Positions 42,817 to 63,312 are shown, counted from the first letter of the stretch. The stretch: 64,000 nt of DNA from Candidatus Thiomargarita nelsonii (GCA_000785145.2 JSZA02000037.1:1992-65991); one strand, 5' to 3'. The notes: a model not told the origin generated them from the letters alone. Numbers and translations are program-made.

Positions 42817-45813
42817 ATGAGAGAAAACTATTCACCCCTGATGCGACTCACGGCAATCGTGATACTCATCACCTTTACCATGCTCATACTGGAGCCCACA
42901 ATGGTAGCCGCACAAGTTTTGCATCAAGAATATCAAGAAGGCAAAGCACAAGCGGCGCGTGAAGAAGCTGCTAAACTGTCCAAAACCTTGGAAATTGTCG
43001 AAACGACATTATCACAATGGCAAGAGAATTTATCGGCAGATTCGCTGCAACGCCGTACTTTAAAGACAAGTACACAAACCGCGACACTCAAACAACAAGT
43101 CCTGACAATGGATGAACACGTCCAAGCTGACTTTGAAGCCATAGCCGAGCATATCAGCCATCTGCCCCCAGAAATTATGCAACGACATATTGAAGCTGTG
43201 GCGCGTTATCGCTCCGAAATGGACACTTTATTGAACAATCTCGATGAGATAGACGCGGCAACAGATAATGAACAACGCCGCACGAGTATTGATAAGGCTT
43301 TGAAACATCTCAAGCCATTACAAAATCAGGGCAAGCACGCGCCATTTGATCCAAACCAATTGCCATTTAATATTCCAAAAGGGGAAGTGCGTCCACCTAT
43401 CGAAGATGAAAAGGAGTTGAAAAGGCGTTTTCCAGCGAAACCGGTTAAAGTGGCAAGCACAACTCTTTTGCCTGAAATGCTGAAAGTGGCGCAAGCACCC
43501 GATTCAACTGATTTGGAGCCAACAGAGGACGTACAAATCACCCCCCCAATAGAGGCATTGGCTTTAGAATTAGAACATAATCCCGTTAAAATCTATAATT
43601 GGGTGCATGACAACATTCAATTCATACCGACTTATGGCTCAATCCAAGGGAGCCAAATGACTTTGGAAACTAAAAGTGGTAATGCCTTCGACACCGCCAG
43701 CTTACTAATCGCATTACTCCGTGCGTCGGGGATACATGCGCGTTATGCTTATGGCACCGTGCGAATTCCCATTAACCAAGCTATGAATTGGGTGGGAGGT
43801 GTCACTTCACCAGAAGCCGCGATGCAATTACTCGGTCAAGGCGGCATTCCGACGGCGGGTTTAGCGCAAGGTGGCGTGATTAAGTTCTTGAAATTGGAAC
43901 ACATTTGGGTAGAAGCCTGGGTGGATTTCTTTCCGAGCCGAGGGGCGAGACATAAAACAGGTGATAGTTGGGTGCCGATGGATGCCTCATTTAAGCAATA
44001 TGAATTTAGCGAAGGGATGGATATCCAAGGGAATGTGCCGTTTGATGCCGAAGGATTTGTCGATCAAATTGTCAATACCGCCCAAATTAATGAAGATGAT
44101 GGATGGGTTTCTGGCGTTGATCAAACTTTCATGGAAGCCACGCTACAAAACTACCAAACGCTTCTGTACGCCTATATTAACCAGACGAATCCAGATGCGA
44201 CGGTGGGAGAAGTGCTGGGCACACAAAATATTATTCCATCTAATCGCCCGAATTTAGCGGGGAGTTTACCTTATCCGGTGATGGCTAAAGCTGGGTTCTT
44301 TCAAGAAATCCCATCGAATTTGCGTAAAGAATTCCAATTTAATCTTTATGCCTCAGATATGGATAGGATGTTGGAAAATCCGGTTTTTAGTTTGAAACGG
44401 AGTTTACCAGATTTAGCGGGCAAACGTTTGACATTATCTTTTGAGCCCGCCTCTGAGACTGATCGCCAAGTGATTGAAAGCTATTTGCCCGAAGTGCCAG
44501 AAGGAGAGGAGTTGGATCCAAATGACTTACCCAGTTCCTTGCCCGGCTATTTGATTAATTTAAAGGCGCAATTTAAAATTGATGGCGAGATTGTTGCCGA
44601 AAGTAGTGGCTTTAGGATGGGGCAAGAATTGAGTAGTACGACAGGGATTTCTCGGTTGATAGGTGGCTGGGCTATGGCGACTAATAGGCCGATTGCTGGA
44701 GAGTTTTATGCTTTTGGGATTGATTTACAAGGGATCAGTGCCAAACAACTTGAGACTGTGAAAGATCGGATGGAAAGCGTTAAGTCTCAACTTGAGGCTC
44801 AACAGTTTGAGGGGCTGACTAAGGATGGTCTTATTGGTGATATGCTGTATGCCGGCGCGTTGAGCTACTTTGCAGCCAATGATATGAATTTGAAAATGCT
44901 CAATCGAGTGGGACAAGCCTTGGCTTATCGTCAGCCATCTTTTGGGACTTTTTCTACGAATCTGATACCTGTTTATAGTTTTGGCGTGCCGCGACAGGTG
45001 AAGATGAGTGGTATTATGGTGGATATGGATGCTGTTGCTCAGTCGTTGTGGGCTAAAAATAATGATGCCGAGATAAGTCGGACAGTGGGGCAACAAGTGG
45101 GGATGATGAGTTCTGCTTGGGAACATCGGATGCCAGAATTATTGTTTACTGATGATGAGCATCCGGGTGAGGCGGTGTCGGCAGTGAAGGCTCTCGCTAT
45201 AGCTTCTGCTGAAGGACAACGGATTTATACTCTGACTGCCGAGAATGTGGATGCGGTGTTGCCAGTGTTAAATATTGGTATTGAGGTGAAGGATGAGATT
45301 CGTGCGGCAGTGGCGGTTGGACAAGTGGCTACGGTTTCTCAGGATAATATATCTGTTGGTGGTTGGACGGGTGTGGGGTATATTATTGCTGATCCGGAAA
45401 CTGGGGCTGGGGCTTATCGGATTTCAGGAGGAAGTAATGGAGGATTGCTTATTATTTTAGGTGTGGCAAGCATGATTGGGATTGCCGGAATTCTTGCCGG
45501 AGCAGGAGTTTTATTTGGGGTATTATGGTTAGGCGTTGTTATTTATTTTGCGGCTCTATATCTGAGGCTGGCAGGGTTAAATTTTGATTGGAATGCCTTT
45601 TTGGCAATTGAAGACCTTTTAGGAGGAACAGTCGTTGCCTATATGATGTGGGCTGGTCTGGTTGCGTTTGGGGTTTCCTCATCTTTTATAGCAATGATAT
45701 ATTTCGGAATTATAACACTCATATTGTTTTACCAGTTTGTAATGTCACGTCTGTCTAAATGTCGAACCTCGTCTAAATATGCATGGTATCGCACATGGAG
45801 TATATATGCTTGA
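42817..45813 (+). CDS. P1: signal-anchored coiled-coil + Cys-less transglutaminase-like core protein with a glycine-rich multi-TM C-terminus
   Basis: AGGAGA RBS. Core motifs SGNAFDTASLLIALLRASGIHARYAYG ... EHIWVEAWV ... WVPMDAS. Junction motif GWTGVGYIIADPETGAGAYRISGGSNGG, followed by ~120 aa of hydrophobic sequence (GIAGILAGAGVLFG). The track start at 42628 is repeat-encoded. Confidence 0.8.
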   Translation: MRENYSPLMRLTAIVILITFTMLILEPTMVAAQVLHQEYQEGKAQAAREEAAKLSKTLEIVETTLSQWQENLSADSLQRRTLKTSTQTATLKQQVLTMDEHVQADFEAIAEHISHLPPEIMQRHIEAVARYRSEMDTLLNNLDEIDAATDNEQRRTSIDKALKHLKPLQNQGKHAPFDPNQLPFNIPKGEVRPPIEDEKELKRRFPAKPVKVASTTLLPEMLKVAQAPDSTDLEPTEDVQITPPIEALALELEHNPVKIYNWVHDNIQFIPTYGSIQGSQMTLETKSGNAFDTASLLIALLRASGIHARYAYGTVRIPINQAMNWVGGVTSPEAAMQLLGQGGIPTAGLAQGGVIKFLKLEHIWVEAWVDFFPSRGARHKTGDSWVPMDASFKQYEFSEGMDIQGNVPFDAEGFVDQIVNTAQINEDDGWVSGVDQTFMEATLQNYQTLLYAYINQTNPDATVGEVLGTQNIIPSNRPNLAGSLPYPVMAKAGFFQEIPSNLRKEFQFNLYASDMDRMLENPVFSLKRSLPDLAGKRLTLSFEPASETDRQVIESYLPEVPEGEELDPNDLPSSLPGYLINLKAQFKIDGEIVAESSGFRMGQELSSTTGISRLIGGWAMATNRPIAGEFYAFGIDLQGISAKQLETVKDRMESVKSQLEAQQFEGLTKDGLIGDMLYAGALSYFAANDMNLKMLNRVGQALAYRQPSFGTFSTNLIPVYSFGVPRQVKMSGIMVDMDAVAQSLWAKNNDAEISRTVGQQVGMMSSAWEHRMPELLFTDDEHPGEAVSAVKALAIASAEGQRIYTLTAENVDAVLPVLNIGIEVKDEIRAAVAVGQVATVSQDNISVGGWTGVGYIIADPETGAGAYRISGGSNGGLLIILGVASMIGIAGILAGAGVLFGVLWLGVVIYFAALYLRLAGLNFDWNAFLAIEDLLGGTVVAYMMWAGLVAFGVSSSFIAMIYFGIITLILFYQFVMSRLSKCRTSSKYAWYRTWSIYA

Positions 45814-46177
45814 AAGTACAGTGGTATTTTGTGGATATCTGTGGTTCAGGTTTGGTCTGTTAGCCAAAAAGTCAAACCAATCCTTGCCATACTATATGAT
45901 GATTGTTATTGGAATAATTCTTCTGTTAGGAGTGGGAGTTAAATATTTCTATCAGTTAATTGGCAATAATGCCATCATTAGTAATTACTCTTTTAAAGTG
46001 ACATTGTTCGGTATTGTATGTATTTTACTTTTGGCAGCACTCTATTTTGACTGGTTAAGAATAACAAAAAACTTAATTAATAGAAATAAGCCTTTAGCCG
46101 CCAGAACCCAAATTAGCCTTGATATGAAACTTGCTATTATTGTGTATTTCACTTATATTTTTTTATTGTGTATCTAA
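45806..46177 (+). CDS. 4-TM small membrane protein translationally coupled to P1 (candidate cognate/immunity protein)
   Basis: The ATG overlaps the P1 stop (ATGCTTGA); 123 aa with four hydrophobic helices. Confidence 0.55.
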   Translation: MLESTVVFCGYLWFRFGLLAKKSNQSLPYYMMIVIGIILLLGVGVKYFYQLIGNNAIISNYSFKVTLFGIVCILLLAALYFDWLRITKNLINRNKPLAARTQISLDMKLAIIVYFTYIFLLCI

Positions 46178-46197
46178 TATTGCGTAACTCGTAAGTT

Positions 46198-46302
46198 CGT
46201 AGCGAGGGTAGGGTGCGTCCTACGCACCCTTTTTCCACATATCACTCAATAACAAACTCCTACATCAAAAATGTGCGTGGGACACGCGCCATACGTTCGC
46301 TA
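46198..46302. repeat. GTAGGGTGCG-type REPIN replacing the 5' end of P2
   Basis: CGTAGCGAGGGTAGGGTGCGTCCTACGCACC...GTGCGTGGGACACGCGCCATACGTTCGCTA. Confidence 0.8.
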
Positions 46303-46472
46303 AACTATCCAAAACCTTGGAAATTGTCGAAAGCACATTATCACAATGGCAAGAGAATTCGCTACAACGCCATAACACCCCGACACTCAAACAACAAATC
46401 CTGACAATGGATGAACACGTCCAAGCTGACTTTGAAGCCATAGCCGAGCATATTAGCCATCTGCCCCCAGAA

Positions 46473-46492
46473 ACGAAGTAACGGAACGTTCA
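46473..46492. repeat. 20-bp micro-insertion ACGAAGTAACGGAACGTTCA (member of a dispersed ACGAAGTAAC family)
   Basis: Absent from the otherwise collinear P1 sequence (43171-43177). Related copies lie near 35716, 52700 and 63515. Confidence 0.8.
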
Positions 46493-46495
46493 ATT

Positions 46496-49400
46496 ATGCA
46501 ACGGCATACTGAAGCGGTGGCGCGTTATCGCTCCGAAATGGACACATTATTAAACAATCTCGACGCGATAGATGCAGCAACAGATAATGAGCAACGCCGC
46601 AGGCATATTGATAAGGCTTTGAAACATCTCAAGCCATTACAAAATCAGGGCAAACACGCCCCCTTTGATCCAAACCAATTGCCATTTAATATTCCAAAAG
46701 GCGAGGTGCGTCCACCTATCGAAGATGAAAAGGAATTGAAAAGGCGTTTTCCAGCGAAACCGGTCAAAGTGGCAACCACAACTCTTTTGCCGGATATGCT
46801 AAAAGTGGCGCAAGCCCCCGATTCGACTGATTTAGAGCCAACAGAGGACGTACAAATCACCCCCCCAATAGAGGCATTGGCTTTAGAATTAGAACATAAT
46901 CCCGTTAAAATCTATAATTGGGTGCATGATAATATTCAGTTTATTCCGACTTATGGCTCAATCCAAGGCAGCCAAATGACTTTGGAGACAAAGAGCGGAA
47001 ATGCCTTTGATACAGCCAGCTTACTCATTGCATTGCTCCGTGCATCAGGGATACATGCCCGTTATGCTTATGGCACCGTGCGAATTCCCATTAACCAAGC
47101 CAAAAATTGGGTAGGCGGAGTGACATCACCAGAGGCAGCGATGCAATTATTCGGTCAAGGCGGCATTCCGACGGCGGGTTTAGCGCAAGGTGGCGTGATT
47201 AAGTTTTTGAAATTGGAACACATTTGGGTAGAAGCCTGGGTAGATTTCTTTCCGAGCCGAGGGGCGAGACATAAAACGGGTGATAGCTGGGTACCGATGG
47301 ATGCCTCTTTTAAGCAGTATGAATTTAGTGCCGGGATGGATATTCAAGGCAATGTGCCGTTTGATGCCGAAGGATTTGTCGATCAAATTGTCAATACTGC
47401 CCAAATTAATGAAGATGAAGGCTGGGTTTCTGATATTGACCTGCAAACTATTCGCACAGCCCTAAACAACTACCAAACACAATGGCAAACCGACCTTGAC
47501 AATCGTCATCCTGGCGCCACTTTAGCAGATATGCTGGATAAGCAAACAATTAAGCCAGCCAATCGTCCTAGCTTAGCAGCCGCTTTACCTTATGATTTGA
47601 TAGCAAAAGCTGATACTTGGACGACTCTTCCAGACCACTTACGTCACACGGTCACGCTGAAATTTTACAATAGCCCTTCGGCTCAACATCTGGATGACCC
47701 CTCATTAAACTATACACTCAGTTTGCCTGCCTTAAATACTCAACGGTTCGGTGTCACTTATGAACCAGCCACCGAAAAAGATGCCCAAACCTTAAACCAT
47801 TTTATAACGGCAGACACAAACACACTACCAGTTTATCTATTAAACCTCAAACCCGTTCTCAAACGAAACGAAGCCGTACTTTCTACTGGTTCTGTCATTG
47901 GAATGGGGCAAACTCAATACTATACCATTACCCTCAAAAATCCCCACCATGTCCATAGCGCCAAAGGCAGAGTGACCGCTGGCGATGAAATCGTTTTTGG
48001 AGTGAACAGCAATGAGATTCCTCTTTCTGTGGTGCAAAAACGTTTTAATAGCATCAACCCAAATAGTGCCGCCGAAAACTTACACCAAATGGCTTTACAT
48101 TTCTGGGCGGAGCATGATTTCCTAGACCGTCTAACCGCCCAAGCATATCAAGTACATAGATTGCGTATGCCATCTGTGGGACTCTTCTCGGCCCCCCTAT
48201 CAGTCTCCTATTCATTCGGTATTGCGCGTAATGGCATTTATAAAAATCGTCAGATAGACGTAAAACTTAATCTACAATCCGTCGTAGCTGAAACCGAATC
48301 AGCACTTTTTGGTTATATGTCTCAGAGTGGCATACAAGGTTCTTATTTGGAAGGCTCAGTGATTGAACAACTGTTTAAATATACACAAGGCCGAGGACTT
48401 TCAGCCACACAATTATTCATTGAAGCGACTGAGCAGAATATTCCCATCTATCTGGTCACTGAAGAAAACCTTGAAAGAGTTTTGCCCCAGCTCGCTGTGC
48501 ATCAGGAAGTCATAACAGACATCGTTAATGCCATTCATGCCGGACAACAGGTCATTGTGCCGCAACGAGAGATAATTCACGACAATTGGAAGGGAACCGG
48601 CTATATTATTCAAGACCCCCTCACGGGCGCAGGCGCTTATCTTATTGAAGGCGGACTGAATGGAGGCCTGCTGGAATCCTTATTTTGCGAATATTCTAAG
48701 TTGCCTTTGGCTCAACAAATTCTTATATTAGCAGCCGCAGTAATAATGGCTTACCTCGTTGCGATTGTCATGGTACATGCTGTGATGTGGATTAGGGCCG
48801 GAATGATAGTAAGGGCTGAAATAAGCCGCATTATGGCCCTGCCCATGACGACGGTGACGGCTACTGTGCCTGAAATGGTGACAGCTTCCACGACGGCAGA
48901 CGGACGGGGAGCGGATGATTGTTATCTCGAACCGAGCTTAAAAATTTATAAGGTCAGTTTTGAGAATGATATCACTATTTATAAAGATAAAATTGGCGAG
49001 GCTATTGAGATTAAGGATCCGGTTTGGATAGATTTGAATATGGATGGTCAAATTCAGATACCATTGGATAAAAATGAACGTGTTGGTTATGCGGGTGGTT
49101 CTCTAATGAAAGTTAAAGCGGAGTTTTCGGTATCACCACCTTATGTGCATGGTCCTATTGAGAATGACATCCGAATTGGGGTGATTGGTCCAGGTTTCAA
49201 TTTAAGCGGATTAGGGGAATACCATCCTGAACATGAGTTGGTGTCAGTGACTTTGCCCTTAAAAACTTGGGAAAAGCAGACTCAATTTTTTGGGCCATCG
49301 AATCCTATGAGTCTTTCTTGGAGCTATTCGTTTGATGGAGTGACATACCATTCAGCGGGTGTGAGTGAGCATATAGTTTATGTGACGCTTGCTGAGAAGT

Positions 49401-50521: not shown

Positions 50522-50800
50522 ATGTCTAGTTACCCTGTTATTCAATTCATAGATAGCTCCAAAGAATATAGGATCATTCAACATGAGTCAGTTAAAATCC
50601 AAGTTTGCAAGTTTGAAATTTTAGCTCATTTTTCAGAAAATGAATCTATAAAATACTTTATTGTTTCACTTTATGAAAAAAGTAAGGGATTATTTTGGTG
50701 GGAGCCTCAAGATGAGAAGCGGGACTATTTATTGTCTACTTCAAACCAATTAGACTGGTTTTTACAACATTGGTTTATTCATGTTTTAGATGAAAAATAG
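50522..50800 (+). CDS. Hypothetical small protein (92 aa), candidate immunity-type ORF
   Basis: ORF only; it sits in the small-ORF cluster downstream of P2. Confidence 0.35.
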   Translation: MSSYPVIQFIDSSKEYRIIQHESVKIQVCKFEILAHFSENESIKYFIVSLYEKSKGLFWWEPQDEKRDYLLSTSNQLDWFLQHWFIHVLDEK

Positions 50801-50826: not shown

Positions 50827-51282
50827 ATGTGTTATTATTATATGTTTTTTTGTGAATCGACGCAAACTTATAACAGCTTTGAGGATGCTTACCGAAGTAT
50901 ATTTTCGATGTTGGAAGAGAATATTTGGCGATTGAGACACACTATAGTTCTAAAAAAACTTGGTAAACGTAAAAATGGACGACTTTGGTTAGAGTTCCCT
51001 AATCTAAAAGACTCAAAATGCTTTTTTTATCCCCCTAAGCCTAGAGTCAGATGTATAGGCAGGGATTTATATATCAAATTGAAGTGTGTCAGGCGGAAAG
51101 GGAGTCACTGGGAAATTGATATAGAAGGGGTTAATGGTCAGAAAGTTATATTAATTTTTGATGAGAACTATGAATTGATTGAAATTTTTGGGGATGCTAT
51201 TAAAAATGGCAGACAAAAAGTCATTCAAAGTAAAAAACCGATGGAGAAATTAAAAGAGAAATTAAAAGAGTTTGTAAATTAG
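50827..51282 (+). CDS. Hypothetical small protein (151 aa), candidate immunity-type ORF
   Basis: ORF only; the stop abuts a REPIN element. Confidence 0.35.
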   Translation: MCYYYMFFCESTQTYNSFEDAYRSIFSMLEENIWRLRHTIVLKKLGKRKNGRLWLEFPNLKDSKCFFYPPKPRVRCIGRDLYIKLKCVRRKGSHWEIDIEGVNGQKVILIFDENYELIEIFGDAIKNGRQKVIQSKKPMEKLKEKLKEFVN

Positions 51283-51442
51283 CGAGCGTAGGATGCGTCC
51301 TACGCACCATCCATAAACCACCATTAATCTACACCGACATCAAAAATGTGCGTGGGACGCACTCTACGCTCGCTAGGGCAACCACAAGGGATTGCCCCTA
51401 CGAACCGTTATGTTTTGTAGGGGCAATCCTTTATGGTTGCCC
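51281..51442. repeat. Two abutting REPINs (AGCGAGCGTAGGrTGCG type, then GGGCAACC/GTAGGGGCAA type)
   Basis: Direct reading; the first starts within the stop codon of 50827-51282. Confidence 0.85.
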
Positions 51443-51693: not shown

Positions 51694-52146
51694 ATGTTAT
51701 TATGCAAACTTTTATGGTATATTGAGGCAACTAATTGGGAAGATAAAGGTGATATCAATATATTCACCTTTGAAAAATTGGAAAAAACTATAAATCAGTT
51801 TGAAAAACAACATCATGGAAATAAAGCGTCGATATTACAGATACATCTTTCTTCAGGAACTTATCTGGAAGTCGGCTTAGGCTATCCTAAAATATGGTTG
51901 TTTTATGTTTCTCCAAATGAGTGTAAAACAAGTCTCGGGGATAAAGAGAATAGAGATATTGTTGAATTTTGGTGGGGTAATGAATCAGAAGAATTTAGAA
52001 AACGTGAATTAATACCTAATGCTCTGGCTCGACATGCAATTTTATATTTTGTCAAGAGTGGCGGAAAATTAACTGAGGAAGTTACTTGGTATGATGGTTT
52101 GCTAGAATCTGATATTGATGAAATACCTGAGGATATACCTTTTTAA
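51694..52146 (+). CDS. Imm1-like small cytoplasmic protein (candidate polymorphic-toxin immunity protein)
   Basis: 150 aa; the pattern ...LQIHLSSGTYLEVGLG...LFYVSP...FWWGNESEEF...IPNALARHAILYFVKSGGKLTEEVTWYD matches what I recall of Imm1-type proteins. This has not been checked by a search. Confidence 0.35.
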   Translation: MLLCKLLWYIEATNWEDKGDINIFTFEKLEKTINQFEKQHHGNKASILQIHLSSGTYLEVGLGYPKIWLFYVSPNECKTSLGDKENRDIVEFWWGNESEEFRKRELIPNALARHAILYFVKSGGKLTEEVTWYDGLLESDIDEIPEDIPF

Positions 52147-52243
52147 GCGAGCGTAGGGTGCGTCCTACGCACCTTCTTTCCACATACCACTCAACGACAG
52201 CTACATCAAAAATGTTGTGCGTGGGACGCACCCTACGCTCGCT
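52147..52243. repeat. AGCGAGCGTAGGGTGCG-type REPIN (97 bp)
   Basis: GCGAGCGTAGGGTGCGTCCTACGCACC...GTGCGTGGGACGCACCCTACGCTCGCT, immediately after the stop of 51694-52146. Confidence 0.85.
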
Positions 52244-52417
52244 TTGCCGAAAAGCATGACGGAAAGCTTTAGTTATGGTCCAACAACGGCCCTAGAAACC
52301 CACACGGATTTTAACGGCCAAACAACAAGCTTTAGCTATGACAGCAATGGTCGTCTTCAAGAGAAATTTTACGCGGATGGCACTCAGGAAAGCAAGCGTA
52401 GCATGGGTAAAATATAA
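52244..52417 (+). pseudogene. RHS/YD-repeat protein fragment
   Basis: FSYGPTTALETHTDFNGQTTSFSYDSNGRLQEKFYADG (YD repeats). The 5' end is cut by the REPIN at 52147-52243, and the 3' end runs into further repeats. Confidence 0.55.
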
Positions 52418-52424: not shown

Positions 52425-52556
52425 ATGTAGGGTGGGTAGGGGCAATCCCTTGTGGTTGCCCGCGCAACATCGTTATGGGACGCCCAACCCACCATTTATC
52501 ATAAAATTGGTAGTTCGTTCCACCTAAATTAATGTAGGGTGCGTCCTACGCACCGT
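52425..52556. repeat. Nested GTAG-headed REP cluster
   Basis: TGTAGGGTGG interrupted by GTAGGGGCAATCCCTTGTGGTTGCCC, then ...GGGACGCCCAACCCACC and TGTAGGGTGCGTCCTACGCACC. Confidence 0.75.
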
Positions 52557-54430: not shown

Positions 54431-54600
54431 AAAAATTCGTGTCAAGTCAAATTTTCCAAAAAAAAATTTAAGAACTGGCTCAACTCAAAATCCTTGTACC
54501 AACTTTTGAATTCGACACCTCTAATATTTTAACTGACTGATTTTATTTATAAAAGTAAATATCACCCAACAACAAATACTTTGTACCACTTTATAAAACA

Positions 54601-54629
54601 TTGCATTTCCACAACAACCAATATAAAAT
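54601..54629 (+). promoter_or_regulatory. Duplicate of the candidate promoter (TTGCAT-N17-TAAAAT)
   Basis: Same hexamers and spacing upstream of 54666. Confidence 0.4.
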
Positions 54630-54665
54630 CCCCCCACAAAAAAAACCAGGAGACAAAACCAAACC

Positions 54666-55441
54666 ATGCCAAACCCAACAAAAACCAAGAGGATTCTCCT
54701 CATATTAACCAGCCTACTCGCATTAGGCTCAGCACTACCCAGTGCAGCCAACCCCGCGATAGATTGGCTCATCACAACCGCCCAAACCAACGGTGCCTAT
54801 ACCACCGAAAACGACATAGCCACCCCCTTTACAGCCACCGCAGAAACCCTACAAACCCTTTACCAACTAAACGAAACCTCACAACCCACACTCCCTCCCG
54901 CCCTCGAATTTATCCAAACCCAAAGCTTTCCCAGCACAAAAAGGCTCTCCCAAACACTTATACGGAGCGCCTTCGCTGGACAAGCACTTGAGCCCATTAC
55001 TAACCAACTTACCACACGGCTCAACCTCGATGGCGGCATTGGCGATCTCAGCGACTACGACAGCACCATCATAGACACCGCCTGGGCACTCAACGCCCTC
55101 GCCATCACAGACACCCCAATAGAAAACCTCTATCCCGCCATAAACTACCTACTCCAACACCAAAATGGCGGCTGGGCAGACAACGGCAACGAAACCTCCA
55201 GTTACACGCGGCAATAGATTGGATTTTGGATAATGAAGAACCGTCTTATACCAAAGCCCTTAATTCACTAGAAAAGGCAGTAGAATGGCTATCAGCAGAA
55301 AAAGAAGATAAGGCACTTCAGGAATTGCTCAAAGCCTCGGATGAATTGCTCAAAAGCGATGCAGACGATGCCCCGATGATACGGGTGATGATTGGTCAGG
55401 CGATACGGAATGTGTCGGCGGTGATATTTTTGACGCAATAA
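54666..55441 (+). pseudogene. Deletion derivative of the giant protein gene (first ~180 codons joined out of frame to the last ~75 codons)
   Basis: 54666-55205 is paralogous to 36563-37135. 55206-55441 is near-identical to 42392-42621 (AAIDWILDNEEPSYTKALNSLEKAVEWL...). The junction creates a TAG. Confidence 0.8.
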
Positions 55442-55525: not shown

Positions 55526-55550
55526 GACATTTTTTTAACAAGGAGAACTC

Positions 55551-58500
55551 ATGAGAGAAAACCATTCACCACTGATGCGAATCACGGCAGCTGTGATACT
55601 CATCATTACCATGCTCATATTAGAGCCCAGAGCCGTTGCCGCACAGGGTTTGCATAAAGGGCAAGCGGCTCAACTGGACAAAATTGTCGAAACCACATTG
55701 AGCGAATGGCAAGAAAATTTCGTCTCGAACTCGCAGCAACGCCGTACTTTAAAGATAAGTACTCAAACTCTCAAACAACAAGTCCTGACATTAGATGAAC
55801 ACATCGAAGCTGACTTTGAAGCCGTAGCCGAGCATATTAGCCATCTGCCCGCCTCAATTATGCAACGGCATATTGAAACGGTGGCGCGTTATCGTCAAGA
55901 GAGGGACACATTATTAAACAATCTGGACGCGATAGACGCAGCAACAGATAATGAACAACGTCTCACAATCATTGAAGAGACTTTAAATCATCTCAAGCCG
56001 CTACAAAATCAGGGCAAACACACTCCCTTTGATCCCAACCACTTACCTTTTAATACGCCAAAAGGAAATGTGCGTCCACCTATCGAAGATGAAAAAGAAT
56101 TGAAAAGGCGTTTTCCAGCGAAATCGGTCAAAGTAGCGACGACCAGACTTTTGCCAGATATGCTGGCGCAAGCACCCGATTCGACTAATTTGGAGCCAAC
56201 ACCGGAGGTGCAAATCACCCCTGAAATAGAGGCTTTAGCTTTAGAATTAGAACATAACCCCGTCAAAATCTATAATTGGGTGCATGACAACATTCAATTC
56301 ATACCGACTTATGGCTCAATCCGGGGTAGCCAAATGACCTTGGATAGCAAAAGCGGAAATGCCTTTGATACCGCCAGCTTACTCATTGCATTACTCAGAG
56401 CCTCTGGTATTCACGCCCGTTATGCCTATGGCACTGTGCGAATTCCCATTAACCAAGCTATGAATTGGCTTTCCGGTGTCAGCTCAGCAGAAGCGGCGAT
56501 GGAATTATTGGGGCAAGGCGGCATTCCAACAGCAGGATTAGCGCAAGGTGGCGTGATTAAGTTTTTGAAATTGGAACACATTTGGGTAGAAGCCTGGGTA
56601 GATTTTTTTCCGAGCCGAGGGGCTAGACACAAAACCGGTGATAGCTGGGTGCCCATGGACGCGAGCTTTAAACAGCACACCTTTACACCTGCCATCAATT
56701 TAGCAGAGCAAGTCCCCTTTGATATTGAGGCACTACGTGAACACATTCTCACCACCGCACAAATTGATGCTCAAGGTGGAATGACTGATATTGACTTAAC
56801 TTATATGCAGGAAAGCTTAAATGCTTATGAAATTGAACTTGAAACTTACGTAAAGACTAACAATATCGAGTCTGAAGAATTACTCGGCTCAAAGGCCATT
56901 ATACCGGCGAATCGTTCCGTTTTGGCAGCCTCATTACCTTATACCTTAATTGCCATCGGTAGCCAATTCAACGAAATCCCAAGCCATTTGACGCATCGTC
57001 TCACCGTGAAATTTTATCACAGTTCATTGGCACAAACGCTTGATGATCCGACTTTGAGCTACACATTAAGCTTGCCGGCTCTCAACACACAAAGGCTCAG
57101 TGTCACATATCTCCCCGCTACCGCTGCCGACGCCGAAGCCTTAGAAGAAATGAGGAATTCTGGGCTAGAAAAATTGCCCTTATATCTCTTTCAAGTCAAA
57201 CCCGTTCTCAAATTAGAAAACACGGTTCTTGTTGAAGGAAGTGCTATCCAAATGGGACAAGCACAATATTACACAACAACATTCACTGATCCCCATCAAA
57301 TCTATACAGAAAAGGGACAAGCGACGGCTGGAGATGAAATAGCATTGGTTGTCAACGGCAATGGCATTAGCATAGACATAGTGCAAAAACGTTCAGACAC
57401 GGCAGCCTTTGGGAGTGCGGCGGCCGAAAATCTGCACCAAACGGGATTACGTTTTTGGATGGAACATGATCTATTTGACAGTCTCGCGGCTCAAACTTAT
57501 AATGTTCGCGTACAACGTATGCCCTCTATCGGCACTTTTTTAGTCCCTTTGACGGTTGAATATGCTTTTGGGATCCCCAGATCGGGTTATTATAAACTCC
57601 GTCAAGTCGATGTCAAAAGAAATGTACAAACGCTTATGGCACCCAGTGATGAAATACGCTTTAAATTTCTTTCACACATTGGGATGCACGGCTCTTATTT
57701 AGAAGGCTCCGTCCTTGATCAAGTGTTTGGACGCTCTAATACGCCGGCACGCTCAACCAGCCAAATTCTGCTGGAAGCGACGGAACAAAACATTCCTATT
57801 TATAGGATTAACCAAGACAATCTGAATGAAGTTTTACCACTGTTATCGGTTAGTGCAGAGGTTAAAGACGATATAAGAACCGCCATTTCAGCCGGACTGG
57901 GTGCGATTGTGCCGCAAACCGAAATCGTGGTTGGAAATTGGAGTGGTACTGGCTATATTCTGCAAGATTTGATAACGGGTGCGGCTGCTTATTTGATTGA
58001 GGGCGGTTTGAATGGGGGTAGTCATGAGGGCTGTATCATTGATCAGACGAAATTGATTCGCAACCTACCCGTTTTGAAAGTCCGTAAGGATTGGTTGTTT
58101 AAACATTTTGCTCGTGATCAAGCTTATTGGAAGGCGAAATTAGAGCAGGCTAAAAACCTGAATAATCAAACGGATGTTGGTTATTATACCGACTTGCTTG
58201 ATGAGTCGGCAAGAGCGTTTGTGGCTGCTCTGATCAGATGGGATATTGAATTTGTGCTAGAAGGTGAAGGGTGTTTTGTTGCAAAAGCAAAAAAAGCTGG
58301 GACAGATGGTTATACGACGGAGGAATTTTATGTCCGAGTGGAAAGAAATGCGGAAACCGGTGAGTTGACGATTCCGTCAGTGGAGTTCATTGGAAAGGGA
58401 TTGACTCCTTGTTGGGGTTATGAGTGGGATTTTGGAGATGAGACTGGCACGAGCACACAAAACAATCCTAGTTATTCTTATTCTTATAGCGAAACTAAGA

Positions 58501-59939
58501 AATACACGGTATCCGTGACGGCGAGTTGTGATAAAATTCCAGGGAGCTCAACTAGTGAAATAGAAGTGTATGTCACTTTGGTGGAAATGGATGTTAGGGA
58601 AACCGAGCCTTATGAGGTCAATCAAATAGGGCCAGATGATCCAAGACTGAACGATGAGGGTGGTAGAGAGGATTGGTTAGCCAGAAATAAGTTACTGGTG
58701 TGGCATGATGCTAATAATGAGAATAAAATCACTTTTGAAGTGGTGAAACTGGAGAAAAACAGTGTATTTTGGGTTGAAATCATAGGAACGGGCAATGGAG
58801 AAACCAATTCTCTTAATCCAGAACTACCCATATTTGAAAAACTGACAGAGTCTTCTGAGGATGATTCTTCTAAGGAGTATAATCTTTACATCGTTGAAGA
58901 TAATGACGACAGTGATTTGCTGGTGAGATATGGGCTAGATTTTGATCAATCTGAGTCTTTGGAAGAAAATAATCAACAAGGCGAGAATGAAATCTTTGGT
59001 GAGTATGAAATTTATGGGATTTCGGATGAGGAATATGCTGAGTCTCGGAATAACTTTAACGGCTACTTATTGAGTTTCTTGTTATCAGATATAACAGACT
59101 ATAGCCTATCTCATCTTAGCCATGCTTTAGTTTATCGTGTGGCTAATGGTCTTTTTAAAGAACCGTGGTTCTTTTCTAAGGATTACCGTCCTTCTCATGT
59201 AAAGAATAATCAACCTCCAACGACAGTCACAAAGAACGCTTATGAGGCATTAACTCATAAATGTGGTACTGAATTAACGGTCAATGATGACGGTATCCGT
59301 TTTGTTACGATACCAAGGACTGATGATGACGGGAATATCCTAACGATAGATGGAAGAACCTTGATAACATTCCGTCTTGATCCAAATGGTAGAAAATATC
59401 CGGATGCCGAAGCCAAGCTCACCGTTTACTACTATGACAGTTCTTCGGATGCGGCGATTCTTGTTAGAGAATATGAAGAGTTTCAAAAACAAATTAAGAA
59501 TCTCATTCTTGGAGAACAACAATTGTCTTATGATGACATTAAAAATCAATATGATGTCACTGAGGGTGGCATACAAGAACTCACTTTTTTACTAGAAGGT
59601 TTTTTTGTTAATTTTACCCCTTACGGTAAGATAGGACTGGGTGGTGTGACGATCGAAGGGCCAAATAATGAGATCCATTTATGGGTTGAAATGCAAGGCT
59701 CAGATTTGGTTATCAGTCAAGTTAAAGTTTCACTCCGGTTAGAAGATATTTTTGATTACAACTACTTTAAACCCGGGACAGCAGACTGGACAGATGCTTC
59801 ACGATCCGCGAGCATGATTCAATGTGGTTTTGAAAAAGCGGGCTCAGTGAGCAATGCGGGAGAAATAGGAGTTGTTCGCATTGATGTGGATGGTCTGATT
59901 GAAATAGGGACAATCATTAAATCTCAACCAACACCTTAA
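55551..59939 (+). CDS. P3: full-length paralog of P1/P2 with a third, unrelated C-terminus (PKD-like domain + large acidic region)
   Basis: The same RBS and start context as P1, and the same SGNAFDTASLLIALLRASGIHARYAYG / EHIWVEAWV / WVPMDAS core. Junction motif WSGTGYILQDLITGAAAYLIEGGLNGG. The C-terminus contains WDFGDETGTSTQNNPSYSYSYSETKKYTVSVTA (PKD-like). Confidence 0.8.
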   Translation: MRENHSPLMRITAAVILIITMLILEPRAVAAQGLHKGQAAQLDKIVETTLSEWQENFVSNSQQRRTLKISTQTLKQQVLTLDEHIEADFEAVAEHISHLPASIMQRHIETVARYRQERDTLLNNLDAIDAATDNEQRLTIIEETLNHLKPLQNQGKHTPFDPNHLPFNTPKGNVRPPIEDEKELKRRFPAKSVKVATTRLLPDMLAQAPDSTNLEPTPEVQITPEIEALALELEHNPVKIYNWVHDNIQFIPTYGSIRGSQMTLDSKSGNAFDTASLLIALLRASGIHARYAYGTVRIPINQAMNWLSGVSSAEAAMELLGQGGIPTAGLAQGGVIKFLKLEHIWVEAWVDFFPSRGARHKTGDSWVPMDASFKQHTFTPAINLAEQVPFDIEALREHILTTAQIDAQGGMTDIDLTYMQESLNAYEIELETYVKTNNIESEELLGSKAIIPANRSVLAASLPYTLIAIGSQFNEIPSHLTHRLTVKFYHSSLAQTLDDPTLSYTLSLPALNTQRLSVTYLPATAADAEALEEMRNSGLEKLPLYLFQVKPVLKLENTVLVEGSAIQMGQAQYYTTTFTDPHQIYTEKGQATAGDEIALVVNGNGISIDIVQKRSDTAAFGSAAAENLHQTGLRFWMEHDLFDSLAAQTYNVRVQRMPSIGTFLVPLTVEYAFGIPRSGYYKLRQVDVKRNVQTLMAPSDEIRFKFLSHIGMHGSYLEGSVLDQVFGRSNTPARSTSQILLEATEQNIPIYRINQDNLNEVLPLLSVSAEVKDDIRTAISAGLGAIVPQTEIVVGNWSGTGYILQDLITGAAAYLIEGGLNGGSHEGCIIDQTKLIRNLPVLKVRKDWLFKHFARDQAYWKAKLEQAKNLNNQTDVGYYTDLLDESARAFVAALIRWDIEFVLEGEGCFVAKAKKAGTDGYTTEEFYVRVERNAETGELTIPSVEFIGKGLTPCWGYEWDFGDETGTSTQNNPSYSYSYSETKKYTVSVTASCDKIPGSSTSEIEVYVTLVEMDVRETEPYEVNQIGPDDPRLNDEGGREDWLARNKLLVWHDANNENKITFEVVKLEKNSVFWVEIIGTGNGETNSLNPELPIFEKLTESSEDDSSKEYNLYIVEDNDDSDLLVRYGLDFDQSESLEENNQQGENEIFGEYEIYGISDEEYAESRNNFNGYLLSFLLSDITDYSLSHLSHALVYRVANGLFKEPWFFSKDYRPSHVKNNQPPTTVTKNAYEALTHKCGTELTVNDDGIRFVTIPRTDDDGNILTIDGRTLITFRLDPNGRKYPDAEAKLTVYYYDSSSDAAILVREYEEFQKQIKNLILGEQQLSYDDIKNQYDVTEGGIQELTFLLEGFFVNFTPYGKIGLGGVTIEGPNNEIHLWVEMQGSDLVISQVKVSLRLEDIFDYNYFKPGTADWTDASRSASMIQCGFEKAGSVSNAGEIGVVRIDVDGLIEIGTIIKSQPTP

Positions 59940-60044
59940 CTTGTCCAGAAACGTTTTATCCACGGTTCAAACTTGAGAAGTGTTAAAAACTTCTTGAGTT
60001 TGAGCAAAAATTAAACAACTCTATTGATTGGAGAAGATTGTATT

Positions 60045-61067
60045 ATGACTCATTTTTACAAACCCCTTATTTGCTTGTTACTAATAAGCCTCAGTTTCAT
60101 GGCTTACGGAGAGAAGATTGTTCCCCCCGTCTCAATGGCAGAATTGCCGACCAATATCGAGGAGAAATCGCCAGAAGAACTGGCAGAGTTGATGACTCAC
60201 ATTGCGGGATGGAGTTACCAAGTGCTAGTAGACGTTCCCGAAACCGGACTACAAGCTCAACAAGAATCACTTGAACAAGTGATTGCCCTTAGAAAATGGC
60301 TACAAGCACGTCAGCACCCGTTATTTCAGTTGCTAGCTTTTCGACTGATTGCTGGGGTTGATAAAGCCATTATGAACGAAATCTTTCGTCAAGAAATGGC
60401 AAATCATGGAATTACCGTCAGTCTTCCAATTTTTAAAACGGGATCATTTGATGAACCCTTGTTGAAACATCTGTTGTCATTGAATGAAGTCACCGAACCA
60501 GAGGTGATTGAATATGCTATCAGTCTTGAGGGCAAAATAGCGACCTATTGTCGACAACAAAATTATCCTATTGAGGATTATGTGGGTGGGTTAATTTTGG
60601 GAAAAATTTCCTCGGAAATGCTCGACTATGTTACCGATATTATGTATGCTTTCCCCCCCCCCCTATTGGAGCAATTATCAAAACCACTTGCAACCGATTT
60701 ACTTTTTGTTCAAACATTGGGACTGATTGATAAAAAAAGAGATATTCGTCTGTTAACGGATATCTACTTCGAGAGTGGCTTTCCTAACAACGGCAAAGAT
60801 TTAGAAAACTTGATCAAGTTGAAATTATCAACAAGTCAGCGAATACGTGTAAGTACGAGCTATAAGACTACCTCTAATAAGGTGATGAATACCTTATTTG
60901 CTTATACAGGACGTGACTCCTTATCGTCTTATGGTTTTGGAATAACATTATTTATTCTTCCTTTTATTCAAGAACTAGATGTGATCCCAGTACAAGAACT
61001 TGATAAATTATCTCGAAAGTTTAAACGTCGCATTGGACAATGGCTCACTTTTAAGGAGGAAGGGTAG
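60045..61067 (+). CDS. Secreted protein (340 aa), paralog of the next gene
   Basis: Signal peptide MTHFYKPLICLLLISLSFMAYG; ends IGQWLTFKEEG; followed by a stem-loop and T-run. Confidence 0.55.
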   Translation: MTHFYKPLICLLLISLSFMAYGEKIVPPVSMAELPTNIEEKSPEELAELMTHIAGWSYQVLVDVPETGLQAQQESLEQVIALRKWLQARQHPLFQLLAFRLIAGVDKAIMNEIFRQEMANHGITVSLPIFKTGSFDEPLLKHLLSLNEVTEPEVIEYAISLEGKIATYCRQQNYPIEDYVGGLILGKISSEMLDYVTDIMYAFPPPLLEQLSKPLATDLLFVQTLGLIDKKRDIRLLTDIYFESGFPNNGKDLENLIKLKLSTSQRIRVSTSYKTTSNKVMNTLFAYTGRDSLSSYGFGITLFILPFIQELDVIPVQELDKLSRKFKRRIGQWLTFKEEG

Positions 61068-61074
61068 CTAAATC

Positions 61075-61101
61075 GTGGGGAAAATTGTCCCCACTGTTTT
61101 T
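61075..61101 (+). terminator. Rho-independent terminator-like hairpin GTGGGGA-N6-TCCCCAC + TGTTTTT
   Basis: Lies 8 nt after the stop of 60045-61067. Confidence 0.6.
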
Positions 61102-61115
61102 GAGTGCTACTTGAT

Positions 61116-62114
61116 ATGACTCATTTTTACAAACCTCTTATTTGCTTGTTACTAATAAGCCTCAATTTTTCTGCTTATGCTGAAAATAGCTTACCTGAAT
61201 TACCAAGTGACATTCAGGCTAAAACCACTTCAGAACAAGCCGAAATACTGGGACAAATTGCTGAATTCAGTTATCAAGTGTTAATCGAAGTGCCAGAAAA
61301 AGGTCTTCAAATCCAGCGTGCGGCAATTGAGGATATCATAAGCACTCGTCAATGGCTTGAAACCACACAACTTTCGTTGTTTAAATTGCTGGCATTGCGC
61401 TTGCAAGAAGGCGTTGATCGGGCTATCGTAAATGAGATGTACCGAAAAGAGATGACCAGACATGGTTACACGGTACATACCCCTTTTAAAGTGGGTTCTT
61501 TTGATCTGGCTTTAATAGAAAATTTATTGAATCTGAATGAATTTTCTGAACAACCCGCGATTGAATATGCCATCAGTCTGGATGGTCAGATAGGCCCTTT
61601 TTGTAGACAAGAAAATTATCCTTATGAAATTTATTCTAAAGGTTTGATTTTAAGAAGAGTCTCAACCGAGATAAAAAGTTTGGTTCAAGAGATCCTCAAC
61701 ACTTTTGGTTTAGTCGGTCAAATGACAGAAAAAGAAGTGTCTGACTTTTTATTTAGCCAAACCTTGTTAGGCATTGATAAAGCGAGAGATGTTCGTATCG
61801 CCGCTCAAGTTTATCAGACGGCAGGTGGATTTCCTCAAACGTCGAGAGAATTGAGGGAACTCATTAATTCTAAACTCCCTTTATATGGCGCGATAAAGGG
61901 ACGGCTGAGTACGGGTTATGCGACCACACCAAGTGATGTAATAGGTACATTAGAACTTTATGTTTCAAGCCGGCCATTTTATTATGGATATTCATTGACT
62001 CTCCTTCTTTTCCCCTTTTTGGCCAATATCGATCCGGTTCCTGAAGACTACCGTCAGCCCATTAATGATATGGAAGTTGGGCAATGGTTGACTTTTGCTG
62101 AGGAGGAAAGCTAG
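61116..62114 (+). CDS. Secreted protein (332 aa), paralog of 60045-61067
   Basis: The signal peptide is almost identical to the previous gene; ~40-45% identity overall; ends VGQWLTFAEEES. Confidence 0.55.
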   Translation: MTHFYKPLICLLLISLNFSAYAENSLPELPSDIQAKTTSEQAEILGQIAEFSYQVLIEVPEKGLQIQRAAIEDIISTRQWLETTQLSLFKLLALRLQEGVDRAIVNEMYRKEMTRHGYTVHTPFKVGSFDLALIENLLNLNEFSEQPAIEYAISLDGQIGPFCRQENYPYEIYSKGLILRRVSTEIKSLVQEILNTFGLVGQMTEKEVSDFLFSQTLLGIDKARDVRIAAQVYQTAGGFPQTSRELRELINSKLPLYGAIKGRLSTGYATTPSDVIGTLELYVSSRPFYYGYSLTLLLFPFLANIDPVPEDYRQPINDMEVGQWLTFAEEES

Positions 62115-62124
62115 TCAAAAAAAA

Positions 62125-62167
62125 GGTCTGTCGAATTTGAGCGGAAATCGACAGACCTATTTATTTG
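62125..62167 (+). terminator. Hairpin GGTCTGTCGA-N13-TCGACAGACC followed by a T-rich tract
   Basis: Lies 10 nt after the stop of 61116-62114. Confidence 0.55.
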
Positions 62168-62211
62168 ACGGCTTTTGTTAGAGTATCAACCTTTGAGAGG
62201 AAATCTAAATC

Positions 62212-63312
62212 ATGGGATTGATAAAAAAAATAATGAAGTTTTTGCTTATTTCTATAATACTTTTGGTTCTATTTATTATTTGGATTGTGCAACAGCCACC
62301 AACCTTAGTCGATAGTAAGGAGGGAACGTATAACAAAGCACTTTCTAATGGCGGTGTTCTGAAAAGGACATGGAGTGAACAACATTATGTCAATACCTCA
62401 TGGGGAGATCAATCGGTCTATCGCAGTAGTGAAACGAAGTACATTCCTCCGAATGGAGGAGCCCCAGAACGCATTCGAGGAATCAATAATGCTCAATTGA
62501 AAGGTATAATAGAAAATGCTTTTATTATTAATAATTTAGTTGTTATACCTAATTCAACACCTGAATTGGTGATTCGATATGCAAAGAATCGTTGGCGAAA
62601 AGTGTCGGCTCTAAACATTTTGTACCAGAAACTTCAAGAAAGGGATTATTTCTATAAAGAACATGATAACAACCTATCTGAAATGAAAATAATTATTGAT
62701 GATACCTTGGAACTGTCTTTCAATTACTCAACCTTACTTTTTAATTACTCATTCCGATTTCGGTTGGCCAAAAACGGAAGAGCTTTAGAATTGGTAAATG
62801 TGACAAGTATACCAAAAGAAAAAGAATTCGTTTTAAGAAAACGTCAAGCCGAAAATAACTTACATTTAAAAATACCTAGCACATGGGTAGTTACTAAATT
62901 TTCTGGCTCTGGTGAGTCTTGTTTTGAAACTTTTCCTGCAAGTGTAAATTTAATCAATCTTGAAGTTCCAAACCATGAGCAACATATAATACGTTTAATA
63001 GGTCATAAAACAAATCTTCCTAGAAAATTCTTGTTTCCCCGTAAGCATTGCATAAGAACAGGTGAATTAGATACACAAATCTGGTTTAATATTAATGAAA
63101 ATCCATTTCGGTTACAAAAGACAAAAAGCCTTTCTAAAGATAGATTTTCTCATAATCGTTTTGATTCGGCCGAAACAGTGCATGGTGCCATCAAAATAAG
63201 TAAGAGAAACTTTTATCTTTACGTTTATGCTAAACGCATAAATAATCAGATCATAGAAGAATTTTTGTCTCAACTAGATTCTCTAAACTCACCAAAACGG
63301 AAGAACTTTTGA
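62212..63312 (+). CDS. N-terminally membrane-anchored hypothetical protein (366 aa)
   Basis: GAGAGG RBS and one N-terminal TM; no recognisable domain. Confidence 0.45.
   Translation: MGLIKKIMKFLLISIILLVLFIIWIVQQPPTLVDSKEGTYNKALSNGGVLKRTWSEQHYVNTSWGDQSVYRSSETKYIPPNGGAPERIRGINNAQLKGIIENAFIINNLVVIPNSTPELVIRYAKNRWRKVSALNILYQKLQERDYFYKEHDNNLSEMKIIIDDTLELSFNYSTLLFNYSFRFRLAKNGRALELVNVTSIPKEKEFVLRKRQAENNLHLKIPSTWVVTKFSGSGESCFETFPASVNLINLEVPNHEQHIIRLIGHKTNLPRKFLFPRKHCIRTGELDTQIWFNINENPFRLQKTKSLSKDRFSHNRFDSAETVHGAIKISKRNFYLYVYAKRINNQIIEEFLSQLDSLNSPKRKNF

Follow-up and report, generated by a model that had tools for sequence, protein, structure and literature searches.

A probable polymorphic toxin-immunity locus built on a Cys-less transglutaminase scaffold in Candidatus Thiomargarita nelsonii

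What role is served by neighboring genes whose protein products share a long N-terminal region and then end in C-termini that bear no resemblance to each other? This question is raised by a 64,000-nucleotide stretch of DNA (hereafter called the window) from Candidatus Thiomargarita nelsonii (GCA_000785145.2 JSZA02000037.1:1992-65991). The window carries three such paralogs, which are called P1 (positions 42817-45813), P2 (46496-50176), and P3 (55551-59939), all on the plus strand. The exact matches in this species are PN36_12105, PN36_12110, and PN36_12145. Polymorphic toxins are central to bacterial competition, and their delivery modules include the type V, type VI, and type VII secretion systems (T5SS, T6SS, and T7SS), Rhs, and MafB, among others, and determine how this competition operates. 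An initial annotation made from the sequence alone proposed that the paralogs and their neighbors form a polymorphic effector/immunity system. Our analysis indicates that the island is probably a polymorphic toxin-immunity locus of a large, apparently undescribed family. This reading is supported because the anatomy of the locus and the comparative evidence agree on every hallmark that sequences can reveal, namely a sharp boundary followed by hypervariable C-termini, toxin domains shared with other scaffolds, a downstream gene that co-varies with the C-terminus, and orphan cassettes.

The core of the locus would consist of two genes, one coding for a giant secreted adhesin-like protein and the other for an envelope scaffold protein. 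The three scaffold open reading frames (ORFs) are present where the initial annotation had placed them, and each matches the Pfam family Transglut_core (E values of 4e-14 to 1e-15). They align across ~850 residues of scaffold, with paralog identities of 83-97% over the first ~400 residues and 25-50% in the central part. P1 (998 amino acids) and P3 (1462 amino acids) are full-length and intact genes. In P1, a signal or anchor at residues 1-33 is followed by a helical region that extends to residue ~170, the transglutaminase core at residues 256-390 (nucleotides 43582-43986), a central beta-rich domain at residues ~400-848, the junction motif described below, and a C-terminal tail. The ATG of P1 is preceded by the ribosome-binding site AGGAG, and P3 also carries a ribosome-binding site. 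An interrupted poly-T tract of ~28 nucleotides (42773-42800) is located directly 5' of the P1 ribosome-binding site. P2 (1226 amino acids) is a decapitated, orphan-like copy that spans positions 122-851 of the scaffold hidden Markov model (HMM) before its tail begins. Its degraded 5' remnant (~46299-46495, plus strand) has suffered two deletions and a 17-nucleotide insertion and is out of frame. Thus, the signal-anchor that had been assigned to all three paralogs needs no correction for P1 and P3, but P2 has lost both its start codon and its anchor.

The description of the core as Cys-less holds for every aligned member of the family. The catalytic Cys is replaced by Asn (KSGNAFD), and this Asn is invariant across alignments of 117 and 102 homologs, in which the His and Asp positions of the core are conserved in at least 90% of the sequences. 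The active Cys-His-Asp triad of Transglut_core peptidases is therefore absent from the scaffold, although the fold itself is present. An AlphaFold2 model of P1 (pLDDT 86.7, pTM 0.86, with low confidence in the tail) predicts long N-terminal helices, the transglutaminase core, and a mixed central region, with the junction motif forming the last beta-hairpins. When the whole model was used as a Foldseek query, only the transglutaminase core found a match (3isr, E 6e-3). The central domain, modeled separately (pLDDT 90.3), has no credible match in the PDB: the best Foldseek E value was 0.18, and TM-scores did not exceed 0.11. Sequence searches of the PDB, with the scaffold or the P2 tail as query, also failed to find real relatives, and P1-P3 and the small ORFs had no matches in scans against NCBIfam and PADLOC.

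The scaffold ends in the motif GxGYIxxDPxTGAGAYxIxGGxNGG, which is present in P1, P2, P3, and nearly every family member. In P1 the motif reads GWTGVGYIIADPETGAGAYRISGGSNGG and forms the final beta-hairpins of the scaffold (45361-45444), whereas the motif matches in P2 and P3 are located at 48584-48667 and 57936-58019, respectively, all on the plus strand. The initial annotation had positioned the motif correctly in P1 and P3 and was 2 nucleotides off in P2. The distance from the motif to the C-terminus ranges from 62 to 682 residues across the family. As had been suspected, the proteins become unrelated once the motif is passed: P1-P3 share 61% identity over the final 40 residues of the scaffold but only 13-18% past the motif. 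The same collapse is found among 102 family sequences, whose mean pairwise identity is 53% in the 40-residue segment that the motif closes, compared with 7-18% beyond it. Comparisons with close homologs place the break directly after NGG. The last 300 scaffold residues of P1 are 92-94% identical to those of P0007 and P0008, and the tails are only 19-25% identical (scaffold 94% and tail 25% for P0008). Here and below, P followed by four digits denotes a homolog protein, and L-numbers denote loci from other genomes.

Hydrophobic helices open the tails of almost all family members, and the tails fall into three classes. Class 1 tails are membrane-only, measure ~100-135 residues, and carry two to five Gly/Ala-rich helices. 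Class 2 tails begin with a transmembrane helix or hairpin that is followed by a soluble, often Cys-rich domain. Class 3 tails have no transmembrane helix. The three paralogs of the window represent these three classes in order, and their tails are as the initial annotation described them. The P1 tail (122 amino acids, nucleotides 45445-45810) consists of three or four Gly/Ala-rich hydrophobic helices and is a candidate membrane-acting toxin module; glycine-zipper-like motifs occur 1.3 times per 100 residues in tails of this type, compared with 0.27 in the partner ORFs. The P2 tail (502 amino acids) has one or two hydrophobic helices followed by a domain in which Cys1049, His1159, and Asp1170 (nucleotides ~49640, 49970, and 50003) are invariant in nine sequences. 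The pattern C-x-x-F-A...H...YDPSYG recalls transglutaminases or papain-like enzymes. A search with this tail found five relatives only, and its homologs include P0006, P0009, and P0121-P0125, of which P0124 is an orphan copy and P0125 is a scaffold-less protein. The P3 tail (639 amino acids) lacks a transmembrane helix and contains a PKD domain identified by Pfam (nucleotides 58410-58568). Its final ~180 residues form a domain (nucleotides ~59382-59906) that also ends many scaffold-less proteins with Ig, TSP3, lectin, or RCC1 domains, one of which shows YD-type repeats by eye. Pfam searches at E values up to 1 assign no family to the P1 tail, the P2 catalytic region, or the P3 C-terminal domain.

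Profile searches on the C-termini of homologs recover established polymorphic-toxin domains. Among the top 120 homologs, Pfam detects Ntox16 in 10 and DUF6310 in 11, in each case after the motif. DNase_NucA_NucB and NlpC/P60 domains occupy the same position in other homologs (the NlpC/P60 tail, in L056, is another class 3 tail), and a phospholipase A2-like domain in homolog tails falls just under the Pfam cut-off. Apart from the NlpC/P60 tail, the tails with these domains belong to class 2. In many class 2 tails a signal-peptidase-like site closes the second helix and a Cys-rich domain comes next, as in TAPAYA/AGG, SNAYA/AQ, and STSYA/AGK (the slash marks the site). A count of 64 such sites in 113 tails was made with a lenient regular expression and no control, and so we take it only as a pattern in the listed examples. 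We regard the tails as putative toxins. The P1 tail might disrupt membranes, the P2 tail might be a papain/transglutaminase-like hydrolase that acts in the cytoplasm, and the P3 tail might have its target in the periplasm or at the cell surface.

Another tail type is found in L053, L066, L074, and L075, where a single transmembrane helix precedes a conserved '...YP...YRH' domain with few Cys residues. These tails are accompanied by an ORF family of ~400-440 amino acids, located directly downstream in L053, L066, and L075 and represented by a later ORF in L074. Pfam has no family for either the domain or the ORF, and together they are a candidate for a new toxin-immunity pair.

If the tails are toxins, then the genes that follow them are candidate immunity genes. 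ORF calls and Pfam searches agree with the initial annotation on the small genes downstream of P1, P2, and P3, all of which are on the plus strand. P1 is followed by a small ORF with three or four transmembrane segments (45779-46177) that overlaps the P1 stop codon and is a candidate membrane immunity protein. After P2 there are two small ORFs without a hydrophobic segment (50522-50800 and 50827-51282), which are a candidate cognate immunity gene in split form. An Imm1-like ORF further downstream (51694-52146; Pfam Imm1, E 9.7e-5, 23.6 bits against a cut-off of 22.4) is probably an orphan immunity gene. P3 is followed by tandem paralogs with N-terminal signal-like segments (60024-61067 and 61104-62114), which are candidates for exported proteins that serve the P3 tail as immunity factors or partners. 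Across the family, the median gap between the stop codon of the tail and the next ORF is 0 nucleotides, and the gap is 50 nucleotides or less in 90 of 102 cases. Comparative genomics shows that each module travels with its own, usually translationally coupled, downstream gene.

The type of C-terminus indeed co-varies with the downstream ORF. The 102 tail/ORF pairs form 48 tail clusters and 88 downstream-ORF clusters, and co-clustering is significant (Fisher p = 2e-12). Individual pairs recur as well. A SUKH/SMI1_KNR4 gene follows both NucA/NucB tails (L005 and L080), and a DUF5953 gene follows DUF6310 tails in Methylovulum and Pyxidicoccus, which belong to two phyla. In L083 and L084, P2-type tails are followed by homologs of the window ORFs at 50522 and 50827 (tblastn), which together correspond to one 219-residue ORF in L084. 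P3-type tails, of which there are two in L085 and one in L086, are each followed by a homolog of 337-355 residues that is 34-39% identical to the proteins encoded at 60024 and 61104. A truncated copy in L089 has a P1-type tail (81% identical) and then the 4-transmembrane ORF (80% identical), and in L090 an 80%-identical homolog of this ORF likewise stands directly after a P1-type tail. In addition, the class of tail matches the predicted compartment of the partner protein. Membrane-only tails are followed by an ORF with transmembrane segments in 70 of 71 cases. Where a tail combines transmembrane helices with 90 or more soluble residues, the downstream ORF lacks a hydrophobic segment in 14 of 18 cases, and all three tails without transmembrane helices precede an ORF with an N-terminal signal-like segment.

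Pairs of this kind are not confined to the scaffold. The downstream gene was inspected for two scaffold-less proteins with a P3-type C-terminal domain (L087 and L088), and in both a homolog of 61104 is found directly after this domain on an unrelated scaffold (E 3e-15 and 2e-13). The P3 C-terminal domain and its partner therefore constitute a mobile cassette. In L087 (3858-8776), the domain and the partner gene are associated with a 1311-residue TSP3-repeat protein whose gene adjoins one for a Mu-like prohead protease, so the cassette may also travel on prophages.

The family is widespread. A search with the P3 scaffold yielded 1,029 protein clusters among 8,000 candidates scored, and a scan of one genome per species gave at least 595 pattern matches and at least 550 confirmed stretches. 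Carriers are found among Gammaproteobacteria, Betaproteobacteria, Myxococcota, Nitrospirota, and Desulfobacterota, and include the culturable marine and freshwater genera Alcanivorax, Marinobacter, Cellvibrio, Endozoicomonas, Undibacterium, Methylovulum, and Archangium. The proteins have so far been annotated as 'transglutaminase domain-containing' or hypothetical. Literature searches on the scaffold, DUF6310, DUF5953, Transglut_core together with polymorphic toxins, and Thiomargarita together with transglutaminase found no paper on the family or on either DUF.

More than one copy is present in 27 of 83 loci, where a full-length gene is followed by copies that retain only the 3' part of the scaffold. 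These orphan copies span scaffold HMM positions ~300 or ~650 to 851, each with its own tail and small ORF. Arrays of orphans occur in L055, L073, L077, L030, L048, L024, and L068, and the window provides its own examples in P2 and in a chimera at 63610-64000. When copies within the larger arrays (L055, L073, and L077) are compared, the final 100 residues of the scaffold mostly share 78-98% identity, but the majority of tail pairs share only 15-28% and the majority of downstream-ORF pairs 12-27%. The combination of conserved scaffold 3' ends and divergent tails indicates that the modules following the motif are exchanged through recombination within the conserved 3' region of the scaffold gene, and that displaced modules persist as N-terminally truncated orphan copies. 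Scaffold genes are often found at or near contig ends in draft genomes (e.g. L003, L007, L009, L011, and L028). Tandem, near-identical copies that break assemblies would fit these positions, and thus copy numbers are probably underestimated.

The arrays also bear on whether the tails are toxic at all. The scaffold might instead belong to a non-toxic envelope or adhesion complex, in which the C-termini serve only to tether the protein to the membrane or to provide accessory binding functions, and the downstream ORFs assist in assembly. Most single-copy loci carry only a hydrophobic tail of ~100-135 residues and a small transmembrane protein, some tails are bare hairpins, the giant protein is adhesin-like, and the P3 C-terminal domain also occurs on secreted proteins rich in Ig, TSP3, and lectin domains, all of which would be natural for such a complex. 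However, an anchor is not expected to be replaced wholesale beside a scaffold that is 78-98% identical, nor are arrays of orphan anchor-plus-ORF cassettes expected. Moreover, nuclease, peptidoglycan hydrolase, phospholipase-like, and Ntox16 tails with SUKH, DUF5953, and Imm1 neighbors are not structural parts. These findings make a purely structural role very improbable, and we favor the interpretation of the locus as a polymorphic toxin-immunity system.

The initial annotation began the island at P1, but the unit also takes in the giant gene upstream (36563-42621, plus strand), which is split into two segments (36563-37000 and 37018-42621). According to Pfam, its product has an N-terminal signal peptide, prenyltransferase-like repeats, five CarboxypepD_reg domains, an FG-GAP beta-propeller, and CARDB domains, and its C-terminal ~450 residues are outside any assigned Pfam domain. 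The propeller matches PDB 6mlt_A, a 'hemolysin-related protein' (E 9e-34). The 6mlt structure is that of the Vibrio cholerae biofilm adhesin Bap1. Homologs of the giant protein elsewhere have an NHL propeller (L009), CARDB or DUF11 domains, and sometimes MG2. An alpha-2-macroglobulin-like identity was considered on the basis of Prenyltrans/SQHop_cyclase matches in L001 and MG2 in L009. PDB sequence searches gave beta-propeller matches only, and literature searches on MagD, macroglobulin, and transglutaminase found only irrelevant papers. This identity is kept as a lead.

Clustering places a giant gene immediately 5' of the scaffold gene in 62 of 82 loci, and BLAST does so in 55 of 82. Within 10 kb on either side, the scaffold gene (82 loci) and the giant gene are the only gene families conserved across loci. 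The window does contain genes for a type II secretion system (T2SS), including a secretin and a GspF-like protein, on the minus strand just upstream of the island (30993-34401). These were rejected as an export route since they are not conserved beside the module: the F gene has a match in 1 of 82 loci and the secretin in none.

How would such toxins reach their targets? In a mechanism consistent with these features, the inactive transglutaminase domain may bind a peptide ligand in the envelope, and the giant protein may supply surface or target binding. The transmembrane hairpin, in which the second helix often closes with a signal-peptidase-like A-x-A site, may release the toxin domain in the producer cell or aid its passage across the inner membrane of the target. 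The delivery step is nevertheless the weak point of the toxin interpretation, and a number of observations weigh against it. No secretion-system genes are conserved within 10 kb of the module across the 82 loci. The N-terminal signal implies export by Sec, after which the post-junction helices would act as stop-transfer sequences and stay in the inner membrane of the producer. In P2-type tails, the single transmembrane helix and the linker rich in Lys and Arg lead to the prediction that the domain faces the producer cytoplasm. Beyond the problem of delivery, some homologs have a hairpin of 62-74 residues as their entire tail, with no further domain. The P3 C-terminal domain has no assigned activity, and its partner could be a chaperone instead of an immunity protein. 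Finally, tails that score as unrelated may do so partly because small hydrophobic tails and ORFs have low information content and are hard to compare.

The predicted topology would suit a different kind of system, in which the scaffold and the giant protein sense damage or an invader at the envelope and then activate the tethered effector, be it a pore-former, a nuclease, or a protease, in the same cell, as a suicide or defense response. The downstream gene would be an antitoxin, and the diversity of the tails would stem from an arms race with phages or predators rather than from competition between bacteria. Anchoring of most tails in the producer inner membrane, P2-type domains that face the cytoplasm behind a single helix and a poly-Lys/Arg linker, and the lack of conserved secretion genes nearby are all consistent with this model. 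Other conflict-type genes are also close by in the window. An example is a 1024-residue TPR-repeat protein with a C-terminal CHAT (caspase-like) domain, which is encoded on the plus strand at 23262-26336 and is of a conflict or cell-death type. However, tails without transmembrane helices (NlpC/P60 in L056, and P3), whose partners bear signals, do not fit a transmembrane relay, nor does the frequent occurrence of signal-peptidase-like sites before Cys-rich domains. The combination of Ntox16, SUKH, and Imm1 with orphan arrays is the signature of inter-bacterial polymorphic toxins, and PADLOC-DB models of anti-phage defense have no match among P1-P3, the giant protein, and the downstream ORFs. 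The predicted post-junction topology and the basic linker keep a cis-acting function alive as an explanation, albeit an unlikely one, and deployment against other bacteria remains our preferred interpretation.

If the toxins are indeed deployed against other bacteria, then the giant protein and the scaffold might form an unrecognized toxin-deployment machine that depends on Sec only. In this scheme, a C-terminal helical hairpin would hold the scaffold in the inner membrane, and an internal signal-peptidase-type site after the second helix would free a disulfide-rich toxin domain into the periplasm. The giant partner would then export or present the toxin, or the hairpin would drive entry through the inner membrane of the target. 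We put this joint model forward tentatively and consider it somewhat unlikely as a whole. If true, it would represent a new route for toxin delivery between bacteria in hundreds of species that span Proteobacteria, Myxococcota, Nitrospirota, and Desulfobacterota.

Whether the island still functions in this genome is a separate matter. The decapitated, deleted, and chimeric copies and the RHS fragment that the initial annotation listed are all present. The giant gene is split by a palindromic insertion of ~110 nucleotides, which contains a copy of a short hairpin repeat (at 36998). A second copy of the giant gene (54593-55441, plus strand) is a remnant, recognized from direct repeats D4, D8, and D6 (90-97% identity), in which the 5' end (matching 36490-36932) is joined to the 3' end (matching 42388-42621) by a large internal deletion. 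The chimeric remnant at 63610-64000 (plus strand), which runs past the end of the window, consists of a second copy of 59988-60230 (95% identity) joined to a piece of P2-like scaffold (matching 47666-47818 at 98%; repeats D5 and D3, scaffold HMM positions 514-563). The segment between the P2 and P3 blocks has a low guanine-cytosine (GC) content of 0.33-0.38. It carries an isolated RHS_repeat fragment of 66 residues (52217-52417, plus strand; Pfam, 24 bits against a cut-off of 22) and, on the minus strand, a gene for a plasmid-type replication initiator (52843-54264; Pfam Rep3_N and Rep3_C), and may be the remnant of an integrated plasmid.

These features raise the prospect that the island is a decaying relic without present function in this genome, even if the family is active elsewhere. 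The interrupted giant gene, the loss of the P2 5' end, the deletion in the second giant copy, the chimera at the window end, and the low-GC insert with its Rep3 gene and RHS fragment all favor decay, as does the split state of the candidate P2 immunity gene compared with the single ORF in L084. On the other hand, P1 and P3 are uninterrupted long ORFs that have ribosome-binding sites, and the partner genes coupled to them downstream are also intact. Some of the breaks could also be assembly or sequencing errors, because the assembly is derived from an uncultured giant bacterium. We consider decay into a relic to be a real possibility, but less likely than not. With P1 and P3 intact, P2 reduced to an orphan, and the giant gene interrupted, present-day activity is uncertain.

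Other elements of the island are less readily placed. The hairpin repeat, TAGGGGCAA(N)GTGGTTGCCC, has five copies in the window (28802-28826, 36998-37023, 42711-42735, 51376-51400 on the minus strand, and 52437-52461), of which none would be expected by chance, and it looks like a repetitive extragenic palindromic (REP)-like or miniature inverted-repeat transposable element (MITE)-like element. Beyond the P3 partners, an ORF of 366 residues with an N-terminal transmembrane anchor (62212-63312, plus strand) has no match in Pfam (E up to 1), NCBIfam, or PADLOC. Part of this ORF is duplicated downstream as a 120-nucleotide direct repeat with 83% identity (62771-62890 and 63294-63413).

The family brings a new type of conserved scaffold, with a central domain for which no related structure has been solved, and its junction motif, a clear mark of demarcation and recombination, could guide the mining of new toxin and immunity domains. 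Immediate candidates for such mining are the DUF6310/DUF5953 pair, the P2 domain with the Cys-His-Asp residues, and the domain at the C-terminus of P3 together with its partner. It also poses a mechanistic puzzle, namely how toxins are exported from behind stop-transfer helices with no dedicated secretion system nearby.

In known polymorphic toxins, the switch to the variable C-terminal toxin is marked by VENN in CdiA and by PxxxxDPxGL, an aspartyl-protease motif, in Rhs. The locus described here resembles the CdiA/CdiB/CdiI and Rhs/YD systems in its conserved delivery part, its short boundary motif, and its candidate immunity gene directly downstream, and it shares with CdiA and Rhs the arrays of 5'-truncated orphan cassettes, which retain part of the conserved region. 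Its boundary differs from VENN and PxxxxDPxGL in both its sequence, DPxTGAGAY, and its predicted position inside a folded beta-hairpin domain. In contrast to these systems, neither the scaffold nor its conserved surroundings give Pfam matches to a two-partner secretion (TPS) domain, FHA repeats, a CdiB-like transporter, an RHS shell, PAAR, or VgrG.

The Gly/Ala-rich helical tails of the P1 type and their small partners with two to five transmembrane segments are reminiscent of pore-forming colicins and glycine-zipper membrane toxins with their multi-transmembrane immunity proteins. However, no sequence relation was detected, and the tails lack both the amphipathic helices that keep a pore domain soluble and the colicin-type receptor-binding or translocation domains. 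The attachment of hydrophobic helices to toxins that would act in the cytoplasm likewise resembles T6SS effectors of the prePAAR/Tse6 type. The pairing of a transmembrane hairpin with partners free of hydrophobic segments would be compatible with a role in membrane translocation. In contrast to prePAAR/Tse6 effectors, the helices here immediately precede the putative toxin at the C-terminus of a protein that carries a Sec signal, and PAAR, Eag chaperone, and T6SS genes are absent from the locus.

The closest precedent is provided by Zhang et al. 2012 (PMC3482391), who reported polymorphic toxins with an inactive transglutaminase domain at the N-terminus. In those proteins the domain directly follows the signal and 'always' precedes RHS repeats, export is presumed to depend on Sec and the T2SS, and the domain was proposed to be a peptide-binding toxin anchor. 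Thus, the claim that the scaffold resembles no known polymorphic-toxin N-terminus must be narrowed, because inactive transglutaminase heads have a precedent, and it stands with respect to the RHS repeats, for which Pfam has no RHS/YD match in P1-P3 or the top 120 homologs. The RHS-less scaffold and its giant partner appear to be undescribed so far. The two groups share an N-terminal Sec signal or transmembrane helix, a transglutaminase domain that has lost a catalytic residue, and diverse C-terminal toxins. Unlike the RHS toxins of Zhang et al. 2012, the present family has a helical region of ~200 residues ahead of the core (which begins at residue ~240-256), an RHS-less domain of ~450 residues without a PDB relative after the core, the junction motif, a transmembrane hairpin before many of the toxins, and a conserved giant partner gene.

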